Shown piece by piece: positions 24,077 to 59,046 of a DNA stretch of 64,000 nucleotides. The DNA comes from Opitutaceae bacterium. GTDB lineage: Bacteria > Verrucomicrobiota > Verrucomicrobiia > Opitutales > Opitutaceae. The notes beneath the pieces were generated by a model. It saw only the letters and a list, made by a program, of their open reading frames with translations, was not told the DNA's origin and searched no databases. The stretch is from positions 1,952-65,951 of the forward strand of contig DASZWO010000046.1 of assembly GCA_035546595.1 (NCBI GenBank), given 5' to 3'. Each line of letters begins with the position of its first letter. The first letter of the stretch is position 1. A program made the translations under genes and the position numbers.

Positions 24077-24153
24077 CGGACGCTTAGCTCAGTTGGTTAG
24101 AGCACGTGCTTCACACGCACGGGGTCACTGGTTCGAGTCCAGTAGCGTCCACC
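24077..24153 (+). tRNA. tRNA-Val (anticodon CAC), with encoded CCA
   Basis: Cloverleaf folded by hand. Acceptor stem GGACGCT/AGCGTCC, D stem GCTC/GAGC, anticodon stem CGTGC/GCACG with loop TTCACAC, T stem ACTGG/CCAGT with loop TTCGAGT, discriminator A, then CCA. Confidence 0.9.
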
Positions 24154-24154
24154 A
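24124..24154 (+). repeat. attL core: 31-bp direct repeat (3' part of the intact tRNA-Val)
   Basis: TCACTGGTTCGAGTCCAGTAGCGTCCACCAT, identical to 32998..33028. Confidence 0.9.
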
Positions 24155-24191
24155 TGTTGGAAGAGAATAAGTTAGGAAAAATAATTTCATC

Positions 24192-24214
24192 AGTCTCAGC
24201 ACCTAGTCTCAGCA
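24192..24214 (+). repeat. Two direct copies of AGTCTCAGCA (candidate integrase arm-type sites, attL side)
   Basis: AGTCTCAGCA at 24192-24201 and 24205-24214. The same 10-mer occurs twice near attR in the same orientation. Confidence 0.6.
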
Positions 24215-24541
24215 AGCCCACTCTTGTTCCTGCTGTTCGCTGATGATGTTCATCGGCACGAGGTACCCGGCGACGGTGCCCGCTTTGGGATCAATGTTGA
24301 AGGGACCCCAAATTTTCCCGCAGTAGCGATCCGGACCGTTTGGAAGGATTCGCTTCAAATCTTCAGCGCGCACAATGACAGTCGGTCCGGACTTGCAGAT
24401 GAATTTGGCTTCCCTCAATCGCTGATCGGATAGAACGGACTTGTGCATGTCCGTCCGCCACACGGGTCCGGCCATTTTCCACGGGACGTTTCGTTCCCAA
24501 CGCCCGTTGGTTATTATCGCGCGTGAAGTCACTGTGGACAC
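24209..24541 (-). CDS. Hypothetical protein (island cargo)
   Basis: 110-aa ORF, last gene of the relaxase-side operon. No family recognised. Confidence 0.5.
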   Translation of the reverse strand: MSTVTSRAIITNGRWERNVPWKMAGPVWRTDMHKSVLSDQRLREAKFICKSGPTVIVRAEDLKRILPNGPDRYCGKIWGPFNIDPKAGTVAGYLVPMNIISEQQEQEWAC

Positions 24542-24599
24542 GGGCTCCCGCGGCTCAGCCGGCGACCCGCGGCCATCGCTCTGACGATTTTCGGCTCCG

Positions 24600-24959
24600 T
24601 CAAATAATCCATGGTGCAGGTTCGCCGGCGAATGTGATCGTCATGCTTTCGTACTGATCGGAGCTGTCCTCAAGGTGCATCTCCAATCCATTTTCGAGTT
24701 CAATTGTGATCAGGCGATCGCCGACAATCTGGCATCGGACAGCCTTCACATTCATGATGTCGTAGAATCCAGCGTCCGGCCACCGACCTTCCTCCCAGGC
24801 GGCAATCAGTGTGCCGGCGCGAAAGAGCTTTACTGGCGATTCAATGGCGAAATTGACGCGACCGAATGTAAATTGGAGGTCGAACTGACCGACACGGACT
24901 TGCGTCGTGAATTCACCAACGACTGGAGAAAGGTCGAGGTGTTTGGGTATCCGGTACAT
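24600..24959 (-). CDS. Small hypothetical protein, immunity-protein-like (DUF6188-like by recollection)
   Basis: 119 aa. Alternating beta-strand-like pattern (FDLQFTFGRVNFAIESPVKLF...LITIELENGLEMHLEDSSDQYESMTITF). No signal peptide. Confidence 0.55.
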   Translation of the reverse strand: MYRIPKHLDLSPVVGEFTTQVRVGQFDLQFTFGRVNFAIESPVKLFRAGTLIAAWEEGRWPDAGFYDIMNVKAVRCQIVGDRLITIELENGLEMHLEDSSDQYESMTITFAGEPAPWII

Positions 24960-24980
24960 TTTGTCGAGTGGGAGTGGGAG

Positions 24981-25604
24981 CTACGCCGCGCGATGAACTG
25001 AAAGGCCGCCGGGAGGCAGGCCGAGTGCTCGCCACGCGGTTCTGATGTTATCTAGTTTTTCGTCGGTGCTGGAATGGGTCAGCACGTAAAACTGCGTTCC
25101 GGGGAGTTGCTGATGCTGATAGGTGAGGCCGCTCTTTGAATTGCGGTAGTCAACCTCCGGCTTCGCGGAGACGAGAGGGCCCCTGTTTACACGAACTTGG
25201 GCCAATCGTTCCAAGGTTTCCGGGCCGCGCGCGGCGACCAGCTCGGCGACGAACGCGACGAGCGTTTCGGACGCCTTCGCTTCGCAAACGACGGCTCTCG
25301 GACGCGCAATGCCGCAAGCGGCCCAATCGAGGGTCGCCTGCAATTCTCCCCGGCGACCCGACGGTTCAAAGGGAAACGACTGCGCGGCTGGCGCGTGCGG
25401 TTGGATCGAATCTGCGCCGCGATCGACTGCGGCATTGAGGTCGGTCAGTTCCGTAGTCAACGACGTCAAATGAAGGTCGATCTCTTTTGCCCTTTTCGCG
25501 ATTCGGGAAAGGCGTTCGATTTCCGAAACATCAGCGCGCCGTGAGGCTTCCTGGATAAGCTTCATCGTCTTGGCCAAGATATCGCCCGGTGTCATTGAGT
25601 TCAT
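24981..25604 (-). CDS. Hypothetical protein (island cargo)
   Basis: The ATG at 25604 (MNSMTPGDIL...) is preferred over the track start at 25673. N-terminal helical or coiled region. No family recognised. Confidence 0.5.
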   Translation of the reverse strand: MNSMTPGDILAKTMKLIQEASRRADVSEIERLSRIAKRAKEIDLHLTSLTTELTDLNAAVDRGADSIQPHAPAAQSFPFEPSGRRGELQATLDWAACGIARPRAVVCEAKASETLVAFVAELVAARGPETLERLAQVRVNRGPLVSAKPEVDYRNSKSGLTYQHQQLPGTQFYVLTHSSTDEKLDNIRTAWRALGLPPGGLSVHRAA

Positions 25605-25697
25605 TTGGACATACTGGGTACTACTTAATACCAAGTAAAGACAGATGATCCAAAGTAACTCGCTGATTACCAATCGCGACGTACGTCGGGTGCGCGA

Positions 25698-26045
25698 TCA
25701 CTGCTCTGACTGCTGAACCACAATTCTTGTAACGAAAGGCTCCCCTGGGTCCGCCAGCGCCCCATAGTCCGGCGGCAATTCCCGGAGCGTTTCGAGGTGA
25801 AACTGTCTGATGTCACCGAGCAGCTTTGGCAGATTGCGACCTTGAATTTCAATTCGCTCGTCCGCGAACGTTAGCACGAGCTTTTCGCGGTCGAAATGGT
25901 AGCGGCTGAATCGAGCCCAGGCGAAACCCAGTGACTCGCCGTTTGCCAACTCAATCGAGAGTGTCGCCGTCGAGTGACCTCCGGTGTAGCAGCGGTAACG
26001 CGGGTCGGGCCTGCGGAGCGGGGCCGATTGTTGAGAAAGGCTCAT
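25698..26045 (-). CDS. Hypothetical protein translationally coupled to the relaxase
   Basis: The ATG overlaps the relaxase stop (ATGA on the minus strand at 26045-26042). 115 aa, no family recognised. Confidence 0.55.
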   Translation of the reverse strand: MSLSQQSAPLRRPDPRYRCYTGGHSTATLSIELANGESLGFAWARFSRYHFDREKLVLTFADERIEIQGRNLPKLLGDIRQFHLETLRELPPDYGALADPGEPFVTRIVVQQSEQ

Positions 26046-29030: not shown

Positions 29031-29321
29031 TCACGACGCGGGCGTGATAGTCTCAGCGGAGCGCCGGATATAGTCCAAGACAGAGTCGAGAACTACCAAG
29101 CGGATGCCGCGCAGTGCGCCTCGCTGGCGCACCGCGACCATTTTGATTTCGCCCGCAGCTGCGGCCTTGTAGTACCATCCGCGTGAGAGGCCGAAGTACG
29201 GGTCGCGTTTGCCTGGCTGCGGCAAGCGGTAGAACTCGGCTCGGGCAGTCGGATGGATCGCATTGATTGAGAATTCAGGTGGATTCATTGTCGGGTCCTT
29301 TTGTTGATACTGCGTCATCAA
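29031..29321 (-). CDS. Small DNA-binding protein, excisionase/AlpA-like (putative Xis)
   Basis: 96 aa. Segment FGLSRGWYYKAAAAGEIKMVAVRQRGALRGIRLVVLDSVLDYI resembles the HTH/winged-helix Xis-type proteins found next to island integrases and relaxases. Assignment is by recollection. Confidence 0.55.
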   Translation of the reverse strand: MMTQYQQKDPTMNPPEFSINAIHPTARAEFYRLPQPGKRDPYFGLSRGWYYKAAAAGEIKMVAVRQRGALRGIRLVVLDSVLDYIRRSAETITPAS

Positions 29322-29487
29322 TGCGACATCGCTTTGGGGCGGACGAGAGCGTCTGCATACCCAAAAAAGGGCAGGCGTATTACCTTTTTTGGCGTAGCCC
29401 CGTCGCGGAGTCGTGGCAGCGGCCGCTATGCGGCTGAAGGGGCGCCCAGTGGCGCGCCGTCATTCCGACCGTGTGTCGTGGTGAACG

Positions 29488-30294
29488 TTAATTAAGCGCT
29501 CGCCGCACGATTGGCACTAACGCAGTCAGGGAAGTCGCTAAGAAAAGACGATCTCGTTCCACGTAGTTAGTGGTGACACCGGCCAACCGATAGTTTGGAT
29601 GTTCTCCTGAAAATACGGGCCCGCCGCTCATTCCATGAGGATCGGCATCAAAGTTAATGGGCCCACCCGCCAAAGATGTTTCTCGAAGAAAGCCGTGGGG
29701 CAATTCACCCGCTGGAACCACGGGGAGGTTGAATACAATGGGTTGGAGTACGATTTGGGCTCCTTCTGCCATTTGATGCAGCGGCCGATTCTGGATATTG
29801 TTGGGCGCTTGTCCTGGATACCCACAAAATCGGAGCCGAGGTCCTACCGGTTGGGCATGGCAATCGGCTTCAACGATTGGCCAATAGCCTTGACCATCTC
29901 TCGCGATGTTTTCGGCCAATTCGCGGCCAAGCCTCAGTACAGCGAGGTCCACGAAGTCATCCGCTCTAGACCCACCGTCCGGAATGGAGGTTTTCGAAAA
30001 GCGATCTGGAACAGCGTGCACTTCATTTTTTTGAGGAAGCAGTACAGCAATTCCTTCAGGTGCGTCATCGACCACGTGAGCGGCGGTCACCAAAACCGGA
30101 TGTTCGTTGAAGAGCAGCAGAAATCCAGTGCCGTGGTGCCGGTAAGGTCCTTCCGGATTGCGGGGCGTAAGTTTGTATATCGGAATGTAGCAGTCAGGGG
30201 GCGGAACCTGTGCATTTCCGGCCAAGATAAGGCTACTCCGAGGTTTGTGATCCTCTATGCAAGAAACCGATGCGCGGCCAGCCTTAGACCGCAA
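29488..30294 (-). CDS. Trypsin-like (S1/Trypsin_2) serine protease without signal peptide
   Basis: Catalytic triad contexts VLVTAAHVV (His), DLAVLRL (Asp), HGMSGGPVF (Ser). No ATG lies upstream of the His motif. The TTG at 30294 overlaps the upstream gene by 11 nt. Confidence 0.75.
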   Translation of the reverse strand: MRSKAGRASVSCIEDHKPRSSLILAGNAQVPPPDCYIPIYKLTPRNPEGPYRHHGTGFLLLFNEHPVLVTAAHVVDDAPEGIAVLLPQKNEVHAVPDRFSKTSIPDGGSRADDFVDLAVLRLGRELAENIARDGQGYWPIVEADCHAQPVGPRLRFCGYPGQAPNNIQNRPLHQMAEGAQIVLQPIVFNLPVVPAGELPHGFLRETSLAGGPINFDADPHGMSGGPVFSGEHPNYRLAGVTTNYVERDRLFLATSLTALVPIVRRALN

Positions 30295-30523
30295 TGGCGC
30301 GGACGCTCAATACCTCGTCGTCCCTGAGCGCCTCGACGGCTTTCGCCGCAACGGCGACCACGGCAAGAGTCTGTCCTTTTGCCCCGAGGACTTCGGCTGA
30401 GTATCCTTCTTCGCCGTCGGGGGCCACATGATGCTCCACCAACCGCAGCAAGTCGCCGCGACGAAGCCGATATTCCGGCAGATCGCGGGCGAGAGCTACA
30501 TCAGTGTACAGAGGGAACGTCAT
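30284..30523 (-). CDS. DUF4926-like small protein
   Basis: 79 aa. The pattern VALARDLPEYRLRRGDLLRLVEHH...YSAEVLGAKGQTLAVVAV fits my recollection of DUF4926. The ATG overlaps the upstream stop (ATGA at 30523-30520). Confidence 0.65.
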   Translation of the reverse strand: MTFPLYTDVALARDLPEYRLRRGDLLRLVEHHVAPDGEEGYSAEVLGAKGQTLAVVAVAAKAVEALRDDEVLSVRAIAV

Positions 30524-30855
30524 TTGGTGAGGACTTCGACCGGAATCAAGGTTATGAACTTCGTCGCTCCTGACAAGTGTTCCGTCATCCAGATAGTCCT
30601 GACCCGCAGCCTCATGCCGCTGGGGCCGCTTAACACCCCTGGAACTTCGAAATACCGGCCGAACTTGTTTTCATCGACGAGCTGCGCGTCGTTTTCGTCC
30701 CTGACCGCGACCAGGGCTTCGATCAAAGCGTCGGGATTGGCAAGGCCGAAGCCGGCTAGCTCCAGGAACGCCGACTTGTCGCTTCGGCTTTGGCGGACAA
30801 GCAGGTACTGGGTAATCTTTTCCCGAGCGATGGTCGCTGATTTCGGCAATCTCAT
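30520..30855 (-). CDS. DUF6883-like small protein
   Basis: The ATG at 30855 (MRLPKSATIAREKITQYLL...) overlaps the stop of the upstream gene (ATGA). C-terminus reads RVRTIWMTEHLSGATKFITLIP. The family call is by recollection. Confidence 0.6.
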   Translation of the reverse strand: MRLPKSATIAREKITQYLLVRQSRSDKSAFLELAGFGLANPDALIEALVAVRDENDAQLVDENKFGRYFEVPGVLSGPSGMRLRVRTIWMTEHLSGATKFITLIPVEVLTK

Positions 30856-31304
30856 TGCAAGCCCCCTGCTACGGGCTCTCGGATTGGGTAGGCACGGAGA
30901 ATGGCGCCTAGGCACGCGATGAGATTGGGCAGATACGACTGGTCCGAGCTGAATTGAAACTCGTGCCGCTCCGAAAGATGCTCGCCTGTGATTGAAACCT
31001 TGCAGTCGAAATGTCCGGTCCGCGGATTCCGTCCGTCAAATTCGACGGCGAGATTCGGCTCTATCGTGGGGAGTTCGACCTTGCCCTCCAACGTCCGCTG
31101 AAATTCCTCAACTGCTTTTTTCCATCGGCAAAGTTCTCCGAGATGAAGAAAGTTGCCTTGGATTCTAACCACCGAGCCTTCGCCGATGCACTCGGCCGTC
31201 GCCCGTAACCAATTGCCGTCCCAGTAGTCGCCAGCGTCGGGAAACTGGCGGCCATGCACCCAAATCCGCAGCGGCCCGAACGCGATTGACGGTTCTTCGT
31301 CCAT
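30852..31304 (-). CDS. WapI-like immunity-family protein
   Basis: ATG at 31304 (MDEEPSIAFGPLRIWVHGRQFPDAGDYWDGNWL...). The F-x-L-x-I-x-V-x-G-x-Q-F-P...D-x-NWL pattern and the later IEPNLAVEF match my recollection of the WapI family. Confidence 0.55.
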   Translation of the reverse strand: MDEEPSIAFGPLRIWVHGRQFPDAGDYWDGNWLRATAECIGEGSVVRIQGNFLHLGELCRWKKAVEEFQRTLEGKVELPTIEPNLAVEFDGRNPRTGHFDCKVSITGEHLSERHEFQFSSDQSYLPNLIACLGAILRAYPIREPVAGGLQ

Positions 31305-31311
31305 GGCGGCG

Positions 31312-31710
31312 CTACACGGATTGAGTACGACCAAACTCGGAATACGGGAAAAGCTGGCCCGGGGCGGGAATACGGGCCGGAATTTCAAGGCCGTCAACGC
31401 TCCAGATTTCCAATTCCACGAGGCGTCCGGATTGCGCAAAACAAATCGCGCCGCAGAGATGTCCGGCGTCAGTGTGCCACAAGAAGTCGGCTACCGGCTC
31501 GACCCCGAGCTTAGGGTCCCTTTTGTGACCGTCGACCTGAAGGCACACGGTTGCGCATCCGCAACCGCATCTTCCCGTAACGTGCGCCCGTTCAATTTGG
31601 GGAACCATGGCTTCGGCGCCGGGCGTACCGTGAGAAAGCAGCCAATGCAGAAGCTGGGTCTCCTCTGGCGTTAGAGGACGATCTTCCGGAATTATGCCCC
31701 TGTGCTCCAT
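31312..31710 (-). CDS. Small protein with CGCGC motif, DUF6984-like (immunity-like)
   Basis: ATG at 31710 (MEHRGIIPEDRPLTPEETQLLHWLL...GRCGCGCATV...GRLVELEIWSVDG). The upstream part of track ORF 31312..32088 overlaps the integrase out of frame and is rejected. Confidence 0.55.
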   Translation of the reverse strand: MEHRGIIPEDRPLTPEETQLLHWLLSHGTPGAEAMVPQIERAHVTGRCGCGCATVCLQVDGHKRDPKLGVEPVADFLWHTDAGHLCGAICFAQSGRLVELEIWSVDGLEIPARIPAPGQLFPYSEFGRTQSV

Positions 31711-31738
31711 TGGTTCTCCGCTTCCCAAGTAGAGCGGG

Positions 31739-32896
31739 TCAACCAATGCTTGGCAATTTATTGAGAGCCTTCCTCTTGGCCTTCGCCTCCACGTGGGTGT
31801 AATGGCGGCTGATTGCCGTGCTGTCGTGACCGATGATGTCCATGGCCACCGACTCGGGTACACCGGCGTTTTTGAGAAGGCTGGTCGCTGTGTGGCGGAG
31901 CGAATGGAAGGAGATTTCGCTGACGGGGCGGCGGTTTGAATGCCCCACGCCGGTTTCGGCCTTCGTCCTGGGATCGGCCATGCCGGCAGCGACCAAGATG
32001 CCGTGGAATTGCTGGGACAATCGGCTGTCGCTGCCTTCTTTGCTCGCGATGGCGTGAGCCTCCGGGAAGAGCGGGGCCGAGGCATCATCGCCGGCAGGCG
32101 TCGATTGGAGATGGGCGAGGAGGGGAGCGGCGAGCGGAATCACCATGCGGCGCCCGGTCTTGGCGGTGACGAAGCGCAGTTCCTCACTCTCGATGTCGAT
32201 GTTGTCCCAAGTGAGACGGGCGATGTCCTTGAGGCGCTGACCCGTGTAAAGGCCGAAAAGGATGATGCCTCTCCATTCGCCGGACGCGTGAGCCAGGATG
32301 GTCTTGAGTTCCTTCACCGTGAACGGGCGGCGAGCGGAGCGGTCCGCCTCGCGGCGCTTCAAGATGTCGAGCTTCGCTGCCGCGTTGTCCTGGGCGAGGC
32401 CGTCCTTGTAGGCGGCGCCGAGGGCCACGCGGAGGTATTTCAGCGACTTGTTCGCAGTCGCAACGGATGTTCGCTTGTGGACCTCATCCCGGTACTTGGC
32501 GATGTCGGCCTTCGTGAGTTGCGAAATGTCGATGGACGCACGTTCACCGAGCGACTTCAGGAAATCTCGGGTGACTTGGGTGTACGCCTGGTACGTCCGC
32601 AACGACGTGTCGGCCTTTCGCTTCTCCGCCCAATCCGCCAGGAATTGCTTCGCAGTCGCCGAGCGCAGCGGCTCGTTCGTGACCGCCGCATAAATGTCTG
32701 AGAGGACGCGACGGGCCTGGGCTTCGCCCAATCGCTTCTCAGCGGCGAGCCGGGCAGCCTTCTCCCACTCGTTGGCAACAAGCTGAGCCTTCTTCCGCTG
32801 GCTCTGTTTAGTCGAGCGCTGAACGCGCCGGCCGTCAGGCGCGGTGTAGCCGGCGAACCAGTAGGGCGAGCGCGGAAATTTGCGAAGAAAGGCCAT
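31739..32896 (-). CDS. int: Tyrosine-type site-specific integrase
   Basis: Catalytic contexts LYTGQRLKD (Arg), FHSLRHT (His-x-x-Arg), IGHDS...HYTH (His/Tyr). N-terminal SAM-like domain. Lies 100 bp from attR. Confidence 0.9.
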   Translation of the reverse strand: MAFLRKFPRSPYWFAGYTAPDGRRVQRSTKQSQRKKAQLVANEWEKAARLAAEKRLGEAQARRVLSDIYAAVTNEPLRSATAKQFLADWAEKRKADTSLRTYQAYTQVTRDFLKSLGERASIDISQLTKADIAKYRDEVHKRTSVATANKSLKYLRVALGAAYKDGLAQDNAAAKLDILKRREADRSARRPFTVKELKTILAHASGEWRGIILFGLYTGQRLKDIARLTWDNIDIESEELRFVTAKTGRRMVIPLAAPLLAHLQSTPAGDDASAPLFPEAHAIASKEGSDSRLSQQFHGILVAAGMADPRTKAETGVGHSNRRPVSEISFHSLRHTATSLLKNAGVPESVAMDIIGHDSTAISRHYTHVEAKAKRKALNKLPSIG

Positions 32897-32901
32897 GATT
32901 C

Positions 32902-32923
32902 AGTCTCAGCAAAAGTCTCAGCA
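32902..32923 (+). repeat. Two direct copies of AGTCTCAGCA (candidate arm-type sites, attR side / int promoter region)
   Basis: AGTCTCAGCA at 32902-32911 and 32914-32923, immediately upstream of the int start codon (32896). Confidence 0.6.
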
Positions 32924-32997: not shown

Positions 32998-33028
32998 TCA
33001 CTGGTTCGAGTCCAGTAGCGTCCACCAT
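32998..33028 (+). repeat. attR core: orphan 31-bp copy of the tRNA-Val 3' end
   Basis: Identical to 24124..24154. No tRNA 5' half lies upstream of it. Confidence 0.9.
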
Positions 33029-53980: not shown

Positions 53981-55144
53981 GTGAGACCCCAGGTCCTCCT
54001 GGTCTTCCTGACGCGCTTCGAGGAGAGCATGGCCATGCTGAAGGGCGTCATGCACTACGAGCGCACCCACCAGATCTGGACCGCCTTCCACGACGACCAG
54101 GCGCGGGCCGAACTCGACCCCCGCTGGCTCGACGGCAAGCAGTGGGACGGGGTGATCAGCCGGCACACCACGCCCGGCCTGGTCGCCACCTGCCGGAAGC
54201 TCAACCTGCCGCTGGTGGACCTGAACGACACCCCGGTTTTTCCCGGCGTCCCCAAGATCCGGCCGGACAACGTCGCGATCGGCCATCTCGCGGCCGAGCA
54301 TTTCCTCGAGCGCGGCTTTCAGAATTTCGGGTTCACCGGCTTTTCCAACGAGGGATGGTCGTGCGAGCGCCGCGACGGATTCCTCGAGGCGCTGCGCCTC
54401 GCCGGCCGCGACTGCCACCTCCACGACGTCAACTATCCGGGCGACGTCACGCCGGCCTGGGACCTGGACCAGATCTCGGGGCTCTCCGCCTGGCTGCGCC
54501 GGCTGCCCAAGCCGGTCGGCGTGATGGCCTGCTTCGACCTGCGCGCGCACCAGATCCTGACCGCGGCCCACGCCAACGGCATCCTGGTCCCGGAGGAGAT
54601 CGCGGTGGTCGGGGCCAACAACGATCCGATCCGGTGCGAGCTCGCCTCGCCGCCGCTCAGCAGCGTCGCCCCCAACGCCTTCCAGTCCGGCTACCGCGCC
54701 GCCGAGGTCCTCGCCGGGCTCCTCGCCGGGAGCAAGTTTCCGGACTTCGACGAGCGCATCGAGCCCGTCGGGATCGTGACCCGGCTTTCCAGCGACGTGC
54801 TCGCGATCGACGACCGCGCGGTCGCCTCGGCGCTCAGCGTGATCCGGGAGCACGCCTGCCACGGGCTGACGGTCGACGAGATCGTGAGGCAGGCGCACGC
54901 CTCCCGCAGCCAGCTGGAGAAGAAGTTCCGGCGCCACCTCGGGCGCTCGCCCCAGGCGGAGATCCGCCGGGTCCAGGTGGAGAAAATCCGGCGGCTGCTG
55001 ATCGAAACCGACTTCCCCCTGAAGAAGGTGGCCGAGCTCGCCGGCTTCGAGCACGTGGAGTACATGTGCGTCGTTTTCAAGCGGTTGGTGGGGGATTCGC
55101 CCGGCGAATTCCGCCGCAAAACCCAAGCAAAGAGCATTCAGTAG
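53981..55144 (+). CDS. XylR-type regulator (sugar-binding PBP-like domain + AraC-family HTH)
   Basis: C-terminal AraC HTH (SRSQLEKKFRRHLGRSPQAEIRR...KKVAELAGFEHVEYMCVVFKRLVGDSPGEFRR). The GTG at 53981 is preferred and the TTG at 53945 is also possible. Confidence 0.8.
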   Translation: MRPQVLLVFLTRFEESMAMLKGVMHYERTHQIWTAFHDDQARAELDPRWLDGKQWDGVISRHTTPGLVATCRKLNLPLVDLNDTPVFPGVPKIRPDNVAIGHLAAEHFLERGFQNFGFTGFSNEGWSCERRDGFLEALRLAGRDCHLHDVNYPGDVTPAWDLDQISGLSAWLRRLPKPVGVMACFDLRAHQILTAAHANGILVPEEIAVVGANNDPIRCELASPPLSSVAPNAFQSGYRAAEVLAGLLAGSKFPDFDERIEPVGIVTRLSSDVLAIDDRAVASALSVIREHACHGLTVDEIVRQAHASRSQLEKKFRRHLGRSPQAEIRRVQVEKIRRLLIETDFPLKKVAELAGFEHVEYMCVVFKRLVGDSPGEFRRKTQAKSIQ

Positions 55145-55204
55145 AGCCCCGGGCCGGCGGAACAGCCGCGCTGGGAGATAGCGTTAAATCTAGTCGGCAA
55201 TAGG

Positions 55205-55233
55205 TCTTAATTCGGGTGCAAGTGAACTCATTC
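55205..55233 (+). promoter_or_regulatory. Bipartite motif TCTTAATTCG-N12-CTCATTC upstream of the TonB-dependent receptor gene
   Basis: Exact match to 47296-47324, 100 nt upstream of the ATG at 55333. Preceded at 55182-55190 by CGTTAAATC. Confidence 0.45.
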
Positions 55234-55332
55234 ACGGCGGAGGGGCCGGCTGCTATAGTCGCCACGCTCCCACACCCCGCGACGGAACCGAAACCCTACA
55301 TTCGGGCCGCTCTGTAGGCCCTTTTCTACCCC

Positions 55333-58300
55333 ATGCAATCCGCACTCCGTACCCGCGTGCCGTTTGGCGCCTTCGGCGCCATCTCCGCACTCTGCCTGAT
55401 GACCGGCACCGGTCTTTGGGCCCAGGTGGCTAATCCCAACTCCGCGGCCGCCACGGCCCCGGCACCCAGCACGACGGCGACGCCGACGCCCACCCAGGTG
55501 GCGGCAGCCTCGGACTCCTACACTCCGCCGGAAAGCGTCGTGCGGATGGACCCCTTCTCCGTCTCGACGGAGAACGAGGGCTATCAGGCCGTCGACACCC
55601 TGGGCGGCGCCCGGGTCGCGACGAAGCTGAAGGACACGCCGTCGGCGCTCACGGTCGTCACCCCGGCGCTGCTGGCGGACACCGGCATCACCAACGCCAC
55701 CGACCTCTACGTCTATACGACCAACACCGAAGTCGCGGGCCTCAACGGCAACTTCTCGGGCGTGTCCTCGCGCGGCATCGGCGTGAGCAACAACGCGGAG
55801 GCCGGGCGGCTGGCCAATCCCGCCGGCACCAACCGGGCGCGCGGGCTGACCGCGATGGACAGCACCCGCAACTACTTCGTCAGCGACATTCCCTGGGACT
55901 CCTTCGACATCAGCCGCATCGACATCTCGCGCGGCCCGAACTCCTTCCTCTTCGGCGTCGGCAGCCCCTCGGGCATCGCGAACTACTCCACCAACGAGGC
56001 GATCTTCAAGGACGAGGGCAACGTCGAGCTGCGCACCGGCAGCTACGGAACCACCCGGCAGTCGCTGGACTATAACAAGACGCTCATCCCCGGGGAGCTC
56101 GCCCTGCGGGTCGACCTGCTGAACGACGACACCCAGTTCCGGCAGAAGCCGGCGTTCAATCACCAGCAGCGCGCCTACGCCGCCCTGCGCTTCGATCCCG
56201 CGGCGCTGGCCACCAGCTCCAGCCACATGAAGATCGACCTCAACGCCGAGGCCGGCCGGGTCCGCTCGAACAACCCGCGCGAACTGCCCCCGCTGGACTT
56301 CATCAGCGGCTATTTCGCGGGAGGCCTGAACAAGGGCGGCTACGATCCCTTCGTCTACAACACCAACCAGCAGCTGACCGGCGTGGGCTCCTTCACCGGC
56401 GTCTCGGCCTGGGTCAACGCCCAGGACATCCACTACCTCTGGCCGGGCCCGAACGCCTCGTACATCTACGACGGGAACAGCGGCGCCCTGCTGGGGGCCC
56501 GGACCACGTTCAACGGGGCGAACGACGTGAACGGCGTCGGTCTCACGTCCTTCCCGCAGGCGGCCCCCCTCTACACGACCGGCTTCGCCAACTACGCGCG
56601 CACCGTGAACTACCGCACCCTGGTGAACGGGGCGGACACGACCGCGAGCAAGTTCAACGGGGCCTATGCGGGCACGGTCACCTACGGCGACAAGTCGCTG
56701 ACCAATCCCTCGATCTTCAACTTCTACGACAACCTGATCGACGGCCCGAACAAGCAGGAGTGGCAGGACTGGAAGGCGTTCAACGCCACGGTGGAGGAAT
56801 CGCTGCTCAGCGGCCGCCTCGCGATCCAGGGAGTGGTCGACCACCAGGACTACACCCAGGGCCAGGCCACCATCTTCGGCTACACCGAGCCGTTCATCTC
56901 GGTCGATCTCGACTCCAACCTGATCGAATACCCCTCCTGGTCCGGCATGGCGGTGGCCAATCCGAACGCCGGGCGGCCCTTCATCGCCGGCGACTTCAGC
57001 AACGGCGACAACAGCACCCACACCATCCGCGACAACTACCAGCTGACCGCCAACGGTGAAATCCGCGCGGATGACTTCCTGCCCAAGGGGGGGCTGCTCG
57101 CCGAGATCCTCGGCACCCACTCGATCACCGGCCTGCTCGGCGAGTACCGGACCAAGATCGACTACCGCGCCTGGGACGGCGACGCCACCGACGTGGCCTT
57201 CGCCAACGCCATGGGCGACGCCACCGGAAACATCTCCGGCTACCGCGGGATTTCCTGGGTTTCGTACCTCGGGGCCAGCATGGTCAACACCCCGTCCGCC
57301 TCGGGCCTGAACCTCAGCCGGATCGCCAACCCGATCCAGCCGATCAGCGGCTCGGTGCTGAGCTTCAACAACACCTGGACCGCCACGGGCGTCAGCCCGA
57401 GCGCCCCCTGGACGGATCCCTCGCCCTATGCGACGAACCCGTCCACCCAGGCGGAGAACCCGGCGAACTACAAGGGCTGGACCTCGATGACCGCCAACGT
57501 GCTCAACTGGCATGACAACATCAGCCAGCTGTACACCAACGGCAATCTGACCCAGCAGAACCTGCGCTCCGGGGCCTTCATGTACCAGGGCCACCTCTGG
57601 GACGACATCATCGTCCCCGAATTCGGCTGGAGGCGCGACGAGATCGACCAGAGCTCCGCCAACGCCCCGCTGGACCCCAACACCCACGTGGCCAGCATGA
57701 ACTACGGGATCACCGGCAGCCCGGCCACGGTCACCACGACCTCGACCAGCTGGGGCGTGAGCCTGCACCTGCCGAAGCAGATCCAGAGCCGCCTGCCGCT
57801 GGGTTCGGACCTGAGCGTCTATTACTTCCACGGCAACAACCAGACGCCGAAGGTCCGCTACGCCTTCGACACCACCCAGCTGCCCAATGAGTCGGGCAAG
57901 ACGGACGACTACGGCGTCCAGCTCGACACCTTGAACGGCCACGCCACGGTCCGGGTCACGTTCTTCAAGACGCTCGACCAGAACGCCGCCGCCGGTTCGG
58001 GCGCCGCGGACCCGCTCGGGGCCAACGGCTACTACCTCTACCTGCTCCCCGCCTGGGGCGCGGGCGACGCCGGCCTCGACGCGCTGGGCCTCGCCGGCAG
58101 CACGGCCGACGGCGGCTTCTCCCAGAACACCGGAGACCTCAAGGCCGAGGCGGCGAGCGTGGCGGACTGGAAGGCGAACTTCGCCAAGTACTTCCCGCAG
58201 CAGTTCTTCGACGCCTACGGCCTCGGAGTGAACGTGGGGGCGATCACCTCGGGCAATTGGGCCAACGTCTACAACAACCCGAACACGGTCAACTACCCCT

Positions 58301-59046
58301 GGGTCATCGCCAACACCGGCGGCGGCCGCATCAACGGCTCGTTCCCCATCATCACCCAGGACATCGAGTCGAAGGGCTTCGAGGTCGAGGCCACGGTCCG
58401 CCCGGTCAGCAATTGGGACCTGACGTTCAACGCCTCCAAGGTGAACGCCTCCCAGACCGCGCTGGGGGCGCAGGATTCCGCCTTCATCCAGGCGGAGTAC
58501 AAGTTCCTCAGCGGCCCGGCGGGCCAGCTGCCGCTCTGGGGCTACTGGGGCAGCGCCGGCGGCGGCACCAGCACGCTCTACAGCTACTTCCTGCAGAACA
58601 TCTGGTCCGCCTACCAGCTGCAGCAGGCCCAGACCGGCACGGAGCAGCCCGAGCTGGCGGAGTGGAACTTCAAGGCGATCACCAACTACCACTTCCGGAC
58701 CGGCTGGACCAAGGGCTTCAACGTCGGCGGCGGCTACCGGTGGGAATCGCGGCCGATCCTCGGCTACGGGATCTCCCAGGTCACCGATCCGACGAGCGGC
58801 GCCCAGAGCTGGATCATGGACGTGCGGAAGCCGCTCTACGGCAAGACCGACTATCACTTCGACGCCTGGGCCGGCTACCAGCACCGGCTGACCTCGAAGA
58901 TCGACTGGCGCCTGCAGATCAACCTGAAGAACGTGGCGGAAAGCCCGCACCTGGTCCCGGTCAGCGTCGAACCCGACGGCAGCTGGGCCCAGGAGCGCAT
59001 CGAGGAGGGCCAGATCTGGGAGCTCACCTACAAGCTCATGTTCTGA
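55333..59046 (+). CDS. TonB-dependent outer-membrane receptor (very large, 1237 aa)
   Basis: Signal peptide, Ala/Thr/Pro linker, plug-domain region (VATKLKDTPSALTVVTPALLADTGITNATDL) and a long beta-barrel with terminal aromatic residue (YKLMF). Confidence 0.85.
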   Translation: MQSALRTRVPFGAFGAISALCLMTGTGLWAQVANPNSAAATAPAPSTTATPTPTQVAAASDSYTPPESVVRMDPFSVSTENEGYQAVDTLGGARVATKLKDTPSALTVVTPALLADTGITNATDLYVYTTNTEVAGLNGNFSGVSSRGIGVSNNAEAGRLANPAGTNRARGLTAMDSTRNYFVSDIPWDSFDISRIDISRGPNSFLFGVGSPSGIANYSTNEAIFKDEGNVELRTGSYGTTRQSLDYNKTLIPGELALRVDLLNDDTQFRQKPAFNHQQRAYAALRFDPAALATSSSHMKIDLNAEAGRVRSNNPRELPPLDFISGYFAGGLNKGGYDPFVYNTNQQLTGVGSFTGVSAWVNAQDIHYLWPGPNASYIYDGNSGALLGARTTFNGANDVNGVGLTSFPQAAPLYTTGFANYARTVNYRTLVNGADTTASKFNGAYAGTVTYGDKSLTNPSIFNFYDNLIDGPNKQEWQDWKAFNATVEESLLSGRLAIQGVVDHQDYTQGQATIFGYTEPFISVDLDSNLIEYPSWSGMAVANPNAGRPFIAGDFSNGDNSTHTIRDNYQLTANGEIRADDFLPKGGLLAEILGTHSITGLLGEYRTKIDYRAWDGDATDVAFANAMGDATGNISGYRGISWVSYLGASMVNTPSASGLNLSRIANPIQPISGSVLSFNNTWTATGVSPSAPWTDPSPYATNPSTQAENPANYKGWTSMTANVLNWHDNISQLYTNGNLTQQNLRSGAFMYQGHLWDDIIVPEFGWRRDEIDQSSANAPLDPNTHVASMNYGITGSPATVTTTSTSWGVSLHLPKQIQSRLPLGSDLSVYYFHGNNQTPKVRYAFDTTQLPNESGKTDDYGVQLDTLNGHATVRVTFFKTLDQNAAAGSGAADPLGANGYYLYLLPAWGAGDAGLDALGLAGSTADGGFSQNTGDLKAEAASVADWKANFAKYFPQQFFDAYGLGVNVGAITSGNWANVYNNPNTVNYPWVIANTGGGRINGSFPIITQDIESKGFEVEATVRPVSNWDLTFNASKVNASQTALGAQDSAFIQAEYKFLSGPAGQLPLWGYWGSAGGGTSTLYSYFLQNIWSAYQLQQAQTGTEQPELAEWNFKAITNYHFRTGWTKGFNVGGGYRWESRPILGYGISQVTDPTSGAQSWIMDVRKPLYGKTDYHFDAWAGYQHRLTSKIDWRLQINLKNVAESPHLVPVSVEPDGSWAQERIEEGQIWELTYKLMF

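Follow-up and report, generated by a model that had tools for sequence, protein, structure and literature searches.

Recombinase-associated acquired interbacterial defence clusters of the rAID-1 type are recognised by a specific XerD-like recombinase and repetitive, integron-like intergenic sequences, as well as by array genes whose GC content contrasts with that of the recombinase and which are homologs of validated type VI secretion system (T6SS) immunity genes (10.1101/471110). Among the folds that serve as scaffolds for immunity proteins is sPC4L, in which Whirly, PurA, MRP and CdiI-type proteins have been grouped (PMC9424270). On mobilizable islands, small genes can have another role, as in SGI1, which is stabilised by the toxin-antitoxin system sgiAT (PMC5006074). 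With respect to toxins, the CdiA-CT of Klebsiella pneumoniae 342 (Kp342) is a tRNase of the Barnase/EndoU/Colicin/RelE (BECR) fold that targets tRNA-Ile and needs EF-Tu/Ts, with K157, Y160, H170, R252 and T255 as site residues (PMC9086364). In addition, the family DUF6883 has been named 'BECR-Tox3' and classed as a toxin, a colicin-like RNase of the BECR fold; DUF4926 is the partner conserved downstream of it, and fusions to Phage_Mu_F have also been reported (bioRxiv 10.64898/2026.08.28.747851). In this work we have analyzed five genes, g1 to g5, that follow the integrase gene (int) of a small mobile element in an Opitutaceae genome, within a 64,000-nucleotide stretch of contig DASZWO010000046.1, hereafter called the window. 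The initial annotation had read them as a rAID-like array of orphan immunity genes ending in a protease. We hold instead, with moderate confidence, that the array is mosaic addiction and defence cargo placed in the integrase-proximal slot of a mobilizable element, with g3 and g4 as a toxin-antitoxin core. Coordinates and family assignments are given in Table 1.

The predicted toxin g3 and its partner g4

The product of g3 matches DUF6883 with 51.0 bits, over a cut-off of 27, and covers positions 7-109 of the 110 in the model. Its AlphaFold2 structure, predicted with 50 homologs (pLDDT 93.4), consists of three helices and then four strands (DSSP: H11-18, H27-32, H41-54, E58-62, E66-76, E82-92, E98-109), which is the colicin-like BECR topology of pre-helices, a helix and four antiparallel strands. 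When this model was compared with the PDB by means of Foldseek, the only strong matches were the four chains of 6CP9, the CdiA-CT/CdiI complex of Kp342, which aligned over the full length with probability 1.0 and template modelling (TM) scores of 0.65-0.71, at a sequence identity of 16-18%. The model and its Foldseek matches, obtained independently of the preprint cited above, agree with the classing of DUF6883 as a toxin. At the sequence level, nothing significant was found in the PDB with g1-g4 as queries or with profiles of the g3, g2 and g5 families. Little or no variation is seen in the g3 family at K13, Y17, R24, D26, K27, E92, H93, T98, K99 and T102, a set that would be compatible with a K/Y/H/R/T active site like that of the Kp342 toxin.

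In the viral library, the best structural matches of g3 were two models of phage 'minor capsid protein' of 473 and 497 aa, with query TM scores (TMq) of 0.86 and 0.70 over about 104-114 aligned residues and a best E value of 1.4e-7. The family itself comprises 336 close homologs (55-76% identity), all of about 111 aa; no relatives were found in IMG/VR viral contigs, nor any match in PHROG. Judging from the modelled fold, g3 is predicted to be a BECR-fold, tRNase-like RNase toxin. The statement in the initial annotation that no toxin domain is present in the array has to be withdrawn, and the structural comparison it had proposed returned an immunity-type fold for g2 (see below) and a toxin fold for g3.

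The linkage between g3 and g4 could be followed in the window, in the sibling island L010/L024, in a mini-island (L105) and in three unrelated chromosomal groups (L016, L169 and L174), six distinct contexts altogether. In all six, a DUF4926 gene lies directly 3' of the g3 homolog with a 4-nt overlap, and tblastn, which recovered g4 where gene callers had missed it, placed it after g3 in 13 of 13 extra loci. The pair stands alone at two chromosomal sites, with a spacer of 290-470 nt upstream, and no homolog of g1, g2 or g5 was found at the loci of the three chromosomal groups. One of the lone pairs sits near an MNT/HepT pair. Constant order and the 4-nt overlap at unrelated sites are the mark of a mobile toxin-antitoxin module made up of two genes. 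As in type II systems, the two genes form an adjacent, co-directional pair across unrelated contexts and one partner has a toxin fold; g3 is basic and g4 acidic (the isoelectric points, pI, of g1, g2 and g4 are all 5.0-5.4). We predict that g4 is the antitoxin or immunity partner of g3. The arrangement is fairly ordinary for islands of this kind, and the pair is a further case of the computationally predicted BECR-Tox3/DUF4926 couple. For g3-g4 we favour the fallback proposed in the initial annotation, in which the element would be stabilised by a toxin-antitoxin or abortive-infection module, and this also matches the cargo of the sibling islands described below.

How the cassette might work can be outlined on the model of sgiAT. 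The g3 protein would be a basic BECR-fold RNase, most like the acceptor-stem tRNases, and g4 an acidic DUF4926 protein that would bind and neutralise it. While the island is present, both would be made from one transcript, together with int; if the island were lost or its expression collapsed, the less stable g4 would decay and the RNase would arrest translation. The expected consequence is retention of the island through post-segregational addiction, and infected cells may abort. As for the remaining genes, g2 would be an orphan of immunity type, passed on along with the cassette within this lineage of islands and probably able to neutralise some RNase toxin, while g1 and g5 would be later, element-specific insertions, the latter presumably an active cytoplasmic serine protease from a rare clade seen beside defence-type genes.

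A variable cargo slot on a mobilizable element

The GC content of the window is around 72% and falls to 0.56-0.65 at roughly 24.1-33.0 kb, where the island (0.594, versus 0.71-0.72 in its flanks) is bounded by perfect 31-bp repeats spaced 8,873 bp apart, one of them at the 3' end of the tRNA-Val gene. The same 31-bp repeat bounds two sibling islands, L105 and L111. Every gene between the repeats is on the minus strand, in the order int, g1 to g5, an xis-like open reading frame (ORF), a TrwC relaxase-helicase gene and four small ORFs. No type IV secretion system or coupling protein was found among the 12 island ORFs, and the island is considered mobilizable because the TrwC relaxase is present and conjugation pore genes are absent. 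With an integrase, direct repeats at the attachment (att) sites in a tRNA gene, a relaxase and no pore genes, the element is an integrative mobilizable element of 8.9 kb in the tRNA-Val of an Opitutaceae genome. The repeats and the low GC content bear out the earlier assignment of the array to a mobile element. The same element was present in two Logan metagenome assemblies, and proteins identical to g2, g3 and g4 are on record in an Opitutaceae metagenome-assembled genome (MAG; VHC86_09725-09735).

The layout given in the initial annotation was correct for int and the five genes, all six ORFs being where it had placed them on the minus strand, as well as for the spacing: 28 nt from the int stop to g1, 7 nt from g1 to g2, and ATGA overlaps between g2 and g3 and between g3 and g4. 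The 11-nt overlap it had described between g4 and g5 holds if the latter starts at TTG 30294; this start is doubtful, a later one being likelier (see below). With respect to the family labels, WapI, DUF6883, DUF4926 and Trypsin_2 passed the Pfam thresholds and DUF6984 stayed below it. The earlier remark that signal peptides are missing also stood in a crude check, in which none of the five proteins had an apolar run of at least 12 residues and no obvious membrane segment appeared in any of them. Between g5 and the xis-like ORF, the spacer (29330-29487) has a hairpin rich in G and C, GGCGCGCCACUGGGCGCC, along with an A6/U6 palindrome, CCAAAAAAGG...CCCUUUUUUGG; its fold was no better than that of shuffled sequences (z -1.5), and no terminator was called on the minus strand.

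A metagenome scan with the integrase yielded 65 related loci, with integrases 38-98% identical. Most of them share the same xis-like and TrwC genes, and int and the xis-like gene lie between 0 and about 4.6 kb apart. This slot holds 110 distinct ORFs in the siblings, among which PIN (5), PIN_3 (4), ParE (2), HipA_C and HepT were identified, and also SLFN_AlbA_2 (2), a fusion of a LexA DNA-binding domain with an N6_N4 methylase, Endonuclease_NS and RtcB. The siblings L105 and L111 are mini-islands at tRNA-Val that consist of an integrase and a few cargo genes, with neither relaxase nor xis-like gene: L105 (6868-10637, ~3.7 kb), whose cargo is a WapI-like gene, a 155-aa ORF, DUF6883 and DUF4926, and L111 (1569-3932, ~2.3 kb). 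In another sibling, L104 (547-4010), the integrase DNA is 95% identical to that of the window and the same slot carries different cargo, in which a 331-aa ORF comes after a 414-aa protein that fuses a LexA DNA-binding domain to an N6_N4 methyltransferase.

Within the 65 loci, g2-g3-g4 were found in L105 only, and neither g1 nor g5 was present in any; with the window and L010/L024, three related islands have the g2-g3-g4 order in common. A blastn comparison with L024 gave three blocks of homology, namely the att site with int, g2 to g4 (73% nucleotide identity), and the xis-like gene with trwC; the gaps between these blocks correspond precisely to g1 and g5. The gaps, the absence of g1 and g5 from the 65 islands and the GC content at third codon positions (GC3) of g5, 0.49, identify the array as a mosaic, with g2-g3-g4 as an older block and g1 and g5 as later insertions.

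These data also bear on the rAID-like reading, according to which the recombinase would gather orphan immunity genes shielding the host from toxins delivered by competitors. Several features of the array are what such a cluster would have, i.e. co-directional genes 3' of a tyrosine recombinase on a low-GC mobile element, a cargo slot that varies among relatives, three small and acidic proteins (g1, g2 and g4), and in g2 a WapI-family protein of immunity fold with no toxin of its own kind adjacent. Two hallmarks of rAID-1, the intergenic repeats and the GC skew, are nevertheless missing. The integrase is one directed to a tRNA site. In GC content, the array (0.54-0.62; g1-g4 0.565-0.617, g5 0.539) is close to int (0.63; 0.626) instead of being skewed from it, and low values versus the host are common to the entire island and its integrase. 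Integron-like repeats are not possible because the gaps are only 28, 7, -4 and -4 nt, and the array contains no repeat family other than a single chance-level pair of 25 nt (80% identity). No homology of the array genes to a validated T6SS immunity gene was shown, and g2 alone belongs to a named immunity family; the label 'orphan immunity-type genes' suits this gene and not the other four. A predicted toxin and its cognate, conserved partner lie inside the array of abutting genes, g4 not being an orphan because g3 adjoins it, and the sibling slots carry classical toxin-antitoxin toxins, not immunity arrays. Taken together, a rAID-like cluster, as had been proposed, is very unlikely.

The remaining island features are collected in Table 1. 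The xis-like ORF has no Pfam match and is a candidate excisionase or AlpA-like protein. The decamer AGTCTCAGCA appears four times in the 64-kb window, exclusively just inside the island ends, in one orientation and in pairs 12-13 nt apart; these are candidate arm-type sites for the integrase or an int operator. The four ORFs at the tRNA-proximal end had no matches in Pfam, NCBIfam, PADLOC or PHROGs; those of 115 and 230 aa recur 3' of TrwC in siblings and that of 110 aa recurs in the mini-island L111. NCBIfam and PHROGs gave nothing useful for any island protein. Elsewhere in the window, the region 55000-59000 differs from the DNA around it in a lower GC content (0.66), a strongly negative GC skew and a positive AT skew.

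Table 1. Features of the tRNA-Val element and its cargo; positions are those of the window.
Feature	Position	Strand	Description
tRNA-Val (anticodon CAC)	24078..24154	+	ARAGORN; integration target, 3' end = left copy of the att repeat
attL-side direct repeat, 31 bp, TCACTGGTTCGAGTCCAGTAGCGTCCACCAT	24125..24155	.	100% identical to 32998-33028
Four small ORFs (115, 230, 119, 110 aa)	24209..26045	-	tRNA-proximal island end
TrwC-type (MOBF) relaxase-helicase, 917 aa	26042..28795	-	Pfam TrwC E 1e-81, AAA_30 E 2e-39
xis-like small basic protein, pI 10	29031..29321	-	phmmer matches in >30 related loci, adjoining int and TrwC
g5, cytoplasmic trypsin-like serine protease	29488..30294	-	Pfam Trypsin_2 E 3e-8
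g4, DUF4926, 79 aa, pI 5.0	30284..30523	-	Pfam E 5e-10; partner 3' of g3
g3, DUF6883 / BECR-Tox3, 111 aa, pI 9.15	30520..30855	-	Pfam E 2e-13
g2, WapI-like, 150 aa, pI 5.2	30852..31304	-	Pfam WapI E 4e-25
g1, acidic, 132 aa	31312..31710	-	DUF6984-like, sub-threshold
Tyrosine integrase (int), 385 aa	31739..32896	-	Pfam Phage_integrase E 6.6e-20
Decamer AGTCTCAGCA, two copies	32902..32923	+	immediately 5' of int start codon; second pair at 24192-24214
attR-side direct repeat, 31 bp	32998..33028	.	duplicate of tRNA-Val 3' end

Genes g2, g5 and g1 and the limits of the module

The g2 protein matches WapI with 89 bits (cut-off 27) over positions 10-138 of 138. Its AlphaFold2 model (pLDDT 92.6) shows a duplicated arrangement of four strands plus a helix, a fold of the sPC4L/Whirly type, and Foldseek related it to Whirly/PBF-2, PurA and MRP1/2, as well as to CdiI-ECL of Enterobacter cloacae (4NTQ_B, probability 0.98, TM 0.45). 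On the basis of this modelled fold, 'immunity-type' appears a reasonable label. The WapI-like family has 856 representatives, and its members are solitary in 79 of 80 genomes belonging to many phyla, often right behind housekeeping genes. Ten tightly coupled upstream genes encode GluRS, MTHFR, FtsJ, an ABC ATPase, proline racemase, thiolase, DUF4279 or unknowns. When the neighbours of the 80 WapI-like loci were clustered, no recurrent partner family was obtained, the top clusters being shadow ORFs, and among the top 25 families listed in each scan of 67 upstream and 65 downstream neighbours there was no polymorphic-toxin domain (WapA, Rhs or Cdi); the toxin linkage expected for such neighbourhoods did not appear among these families. 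A DUF6883 gene adjoins a WapI-like gene in only one of the 80 loci, that of the sibling island. The motifs DYWDGNW, EPxL, TPDH and DQSYLP are near-invariant across phyla in the g2 subfamily, which is unusual for an immunity family. We conclude that g2 is an orphan of an immunity family and that it is linked to g3-g4 in a single lineage of islands only. The possibility that g2 is the cognate immunity protein of g3 was considered and rejected as the main reading, given that g3-g4 are self-sufficient elsewhere and WapI-like genes almost never adjoin DUF6883.

The same data allow a module of three parts to be weighed, in which g2 would act beside g3 and g4 as a second, broader neutraliser, for instance of the diverged BECR-Tox3 proteins of competing sibling islands or of phages; by analogy with omega-epsilon-zeta, g2 could otherwise bind nucleic acid and regulate the operon. 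The window, L010/L024 and L105 agree in the order g2-g3-g4, with ATGA overlaps in two of the three, the edges of the L024 block coincide with the start of g2 and the stop of g4, and the 3.7-kb L105 element retains int and g2-g3-g4 plus one extra ORF. The g2 fold is common to CdiI immunity proteins and nucleic-acid binders, and g4 has no recognisable DNA-binding domain. The three islands, however, are one lineage (int 86-89% identical), in which the linkage of g2 may be plain inheritance, and g3-g4 exist without g2 in three of three independent chromosomal contexts. Moreover, an unrelated 155-aa ORF separates g2 from g3 in L105, and the one case in 80 of a DUF6883 gene next to a WapI-like gene is again the sibling island. 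We regard this proposal as unlikely.

The trypsin-like protease g5 scored 34.9 bits against Trypsin_2 (cut-off 27.6), and its triad, H73 (TAAHVV), D116 and S223 (GMSGGP), is invariant in a four-sequence alignment. Just three homologs, of 27-31% identity, were found among 5.8 billion protein clusters. They begin about 17-30 residues 3' of the TTG 30294 start, and an in-frame TTG at 30225, with GGAG 10 nt upstream, would give a protein of 245 aa and a 58-nt gap between g4 and g5; this is probably the true start, as far as the sequence can tell. With either start, an exact look-up of g5 returned no record, though neighbour proteins from the same MAG are on record. The GC3 of 0.49, compared to 0.65-0.78 in the neighbouring genes, shows g5, which is element-specific cargo, to be compositionally foreign. 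One homolog lies between a JetD_C-like gene and a gene for a 772-aa CHAT protein and another precedes a large SIR2_2 protein, while PADLOC gave weak matches of g5 to the protease modules of LmuA, PDC-S45, PDC-M35A and RT-Protease_XI, this protease domain being all that was matched, and weakly. A defence-related role of g5 is plausible. One homolog is preceded by a small ORF that has no relationship to g3 or g4, and the tie of g5 to g3-g4 is adjacency in one element, nothing more.

It could also be thought that the five genes make up a single defence system with the protease as trigger or effector, for instance by degrading DUF4926 upon phage infection and so freeing the RNase. The tight packing on one strand, the intact triad of a protein with no export signal, the weak PADLOC matches to defence protease modules and the CHAT, SIR2_2 and JetD_C genes adjoining the three distant homologs would agree with this idea. 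Yet g5 is missing from all other g3-g4 contexts and from 65 of 65 related islands, its GC3 marks a separate, recent origin, its likely start, behind a gap with its own GGAG, leaves it apart from g4, and the ORF upstream of its homolog is not of the g3 or g4 families. A five-gene system seems to us highly improbable.

Regarding g1, the match to DUF6984 reached 17.3 bits (cut-off 24.6, E 0.005) with the full model covered, and a homolog 39% identical, P0006, gave a similarly weak 17.6 bits. From these scores g1 is probably only a distant DUF6984 relative. The motif GRCGCGCATV is invariant in g1 and its homologs (e.g. L182, 5992-6375), which amount to two distant ones in the 5.8 billion clusters plus tblastn hits, all of them solitary. 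The latter include unannotated copies on Paraburkholderia megaplasmids, one adjoining a DDE transposase; their flanks (an insertion sequence, ClpB, a decarboxylase) are uninformative.

Several observations weigh against our reading of g3-g4 as the core of otherwise mosaic cargo. The classification of DUF6883 and DUF4926 as toxin and antidote is a prediction that derives from one preprint and from structure prediction. No DNA-binding domain was recognised in g4, unlike most type II antitoxins. A scan for promoter and terminator consensus sequences stayed at background level and is uninformative as to an operon with one transcript. The conservation of g2-g3-g4 in three related islands means that g2 may belong to the module, and a single operon of one function would also be in keeping with how closely g1 and g5 are packed against it. 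Finally, the two genes of the pair differ in divergence: compared with the copies in L105 (9153-9724) and L169 (3501-4072), the g4 protein of the window (pair at 30284-30855) is 99% identical (89-91% at the nucleotide level, with synonymous divergence, dS, of 0.42-0.57), whereas the adjacent g3 is 68-71% identical (dS >1.2). This is unusual for a co-evolving pair and suggests recombination within the cassette or very different constraints on the two genes; it could also suggest that g4 binds an invariant C-terminal half of the toxin.

One way of joining these points would be a g2-g3-g4 unit with one toxin and two unrelated neutralisers, in which the near-invariant g4 would hold the resident toxin and, in the window, the acquired protease might serve as a trigger that removes the antidote. 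We find this quite unlikely. If it were true, g2 would guard against the diverged BECR toxins of competing tRNA-Val islands or the MuF-fused toxins of phages.

Comparison with known systems

Our preferred reading, mosaic cargo around a g3-g4 core, corrects a tempting misreading: what look like immunity genes, small and acidic and placed behind a recombinase, would here be addiction and defence cargo of a kind usual for mobilizable islands, and one 'DUF' is a predicted toxin. The locus presents the BECR-Tox3/DUF4926 pair in a clean and compact natural form on a verrucomicrobial mobile element. It belongs to a set of some 65 related islands at tRNA-Val in which toxin-antitoxin and defence genes are exchanged in the slot next to the integrase, and both the pair and the slot are easy experimental targets. 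The residual novelty lies in the possible three-part unit, the rare protease g5 and the solitary yet highly conserved WapI-like subfamily.

The likeness to rAID-1 (10.1101/471110) consists of a tyrosine recombinase followed by co-directional small genes on acquired DNA, g2 among them being of an immunity family; the recombinase is, however, an island integrase with att sites and with xis-like and TrwC partners, the array includes a predicted toxin-antidote pair and a protease, and toxin-antitoxin toxins occupy the sibling slots. In the case of the sPC4L immunity proteins WapI and CdiI-ECL (PMC9424270), g2 resembles them in its Pfam match and fold and differs in that no cognate toxin gene adjoins it or its 80 relatives, as well as in the unusual conservation of its subfamily across phyla. 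On the side of the toxin, the conserved residues of g3 (K/Y, a basic residue and a K-x-x-T near the C-terminus) form a pattern similar to that of the CdiA-CT in the Kp342 CdiA-CT/CdiI complex (6CP9). It is a free-standing protein of 111 aa with no delivery domain, unlike that toxin, and g4, at 79 aa, is much smaller than CdiI and unrelated to it. The phage toxins in which BECR domains are fused to MuF (PBECR, polyvalent proteins) are similar in fold, as indicated by the minor capsid models, whereas g3 is unfused.

As for gene pairs, the toxin-first type II systems with RNases of RelE/BECR type, HigBA and BrnTA, likewise have overlapping genes, a basic toxin of RNase fold and a small acidic partner, from which g4 differs by lacking a recognisable DNA-binding domain. 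As with sgiAT of SGI1 (PMC5006074), the pair is carried by an integrative mobilizable element; elsewhere, g3-g4 are scattered over chromosomes. The closest counterpart is the BECR-Tox3/DUF4926 pair itself (bioRxiv 10.64898/2026.08.28.747851), with both families above threshold, the toxin upstream and the colicin-like topology, set here on a tRNA-Val mobilizable island beside a WapI-like gene and a protease.

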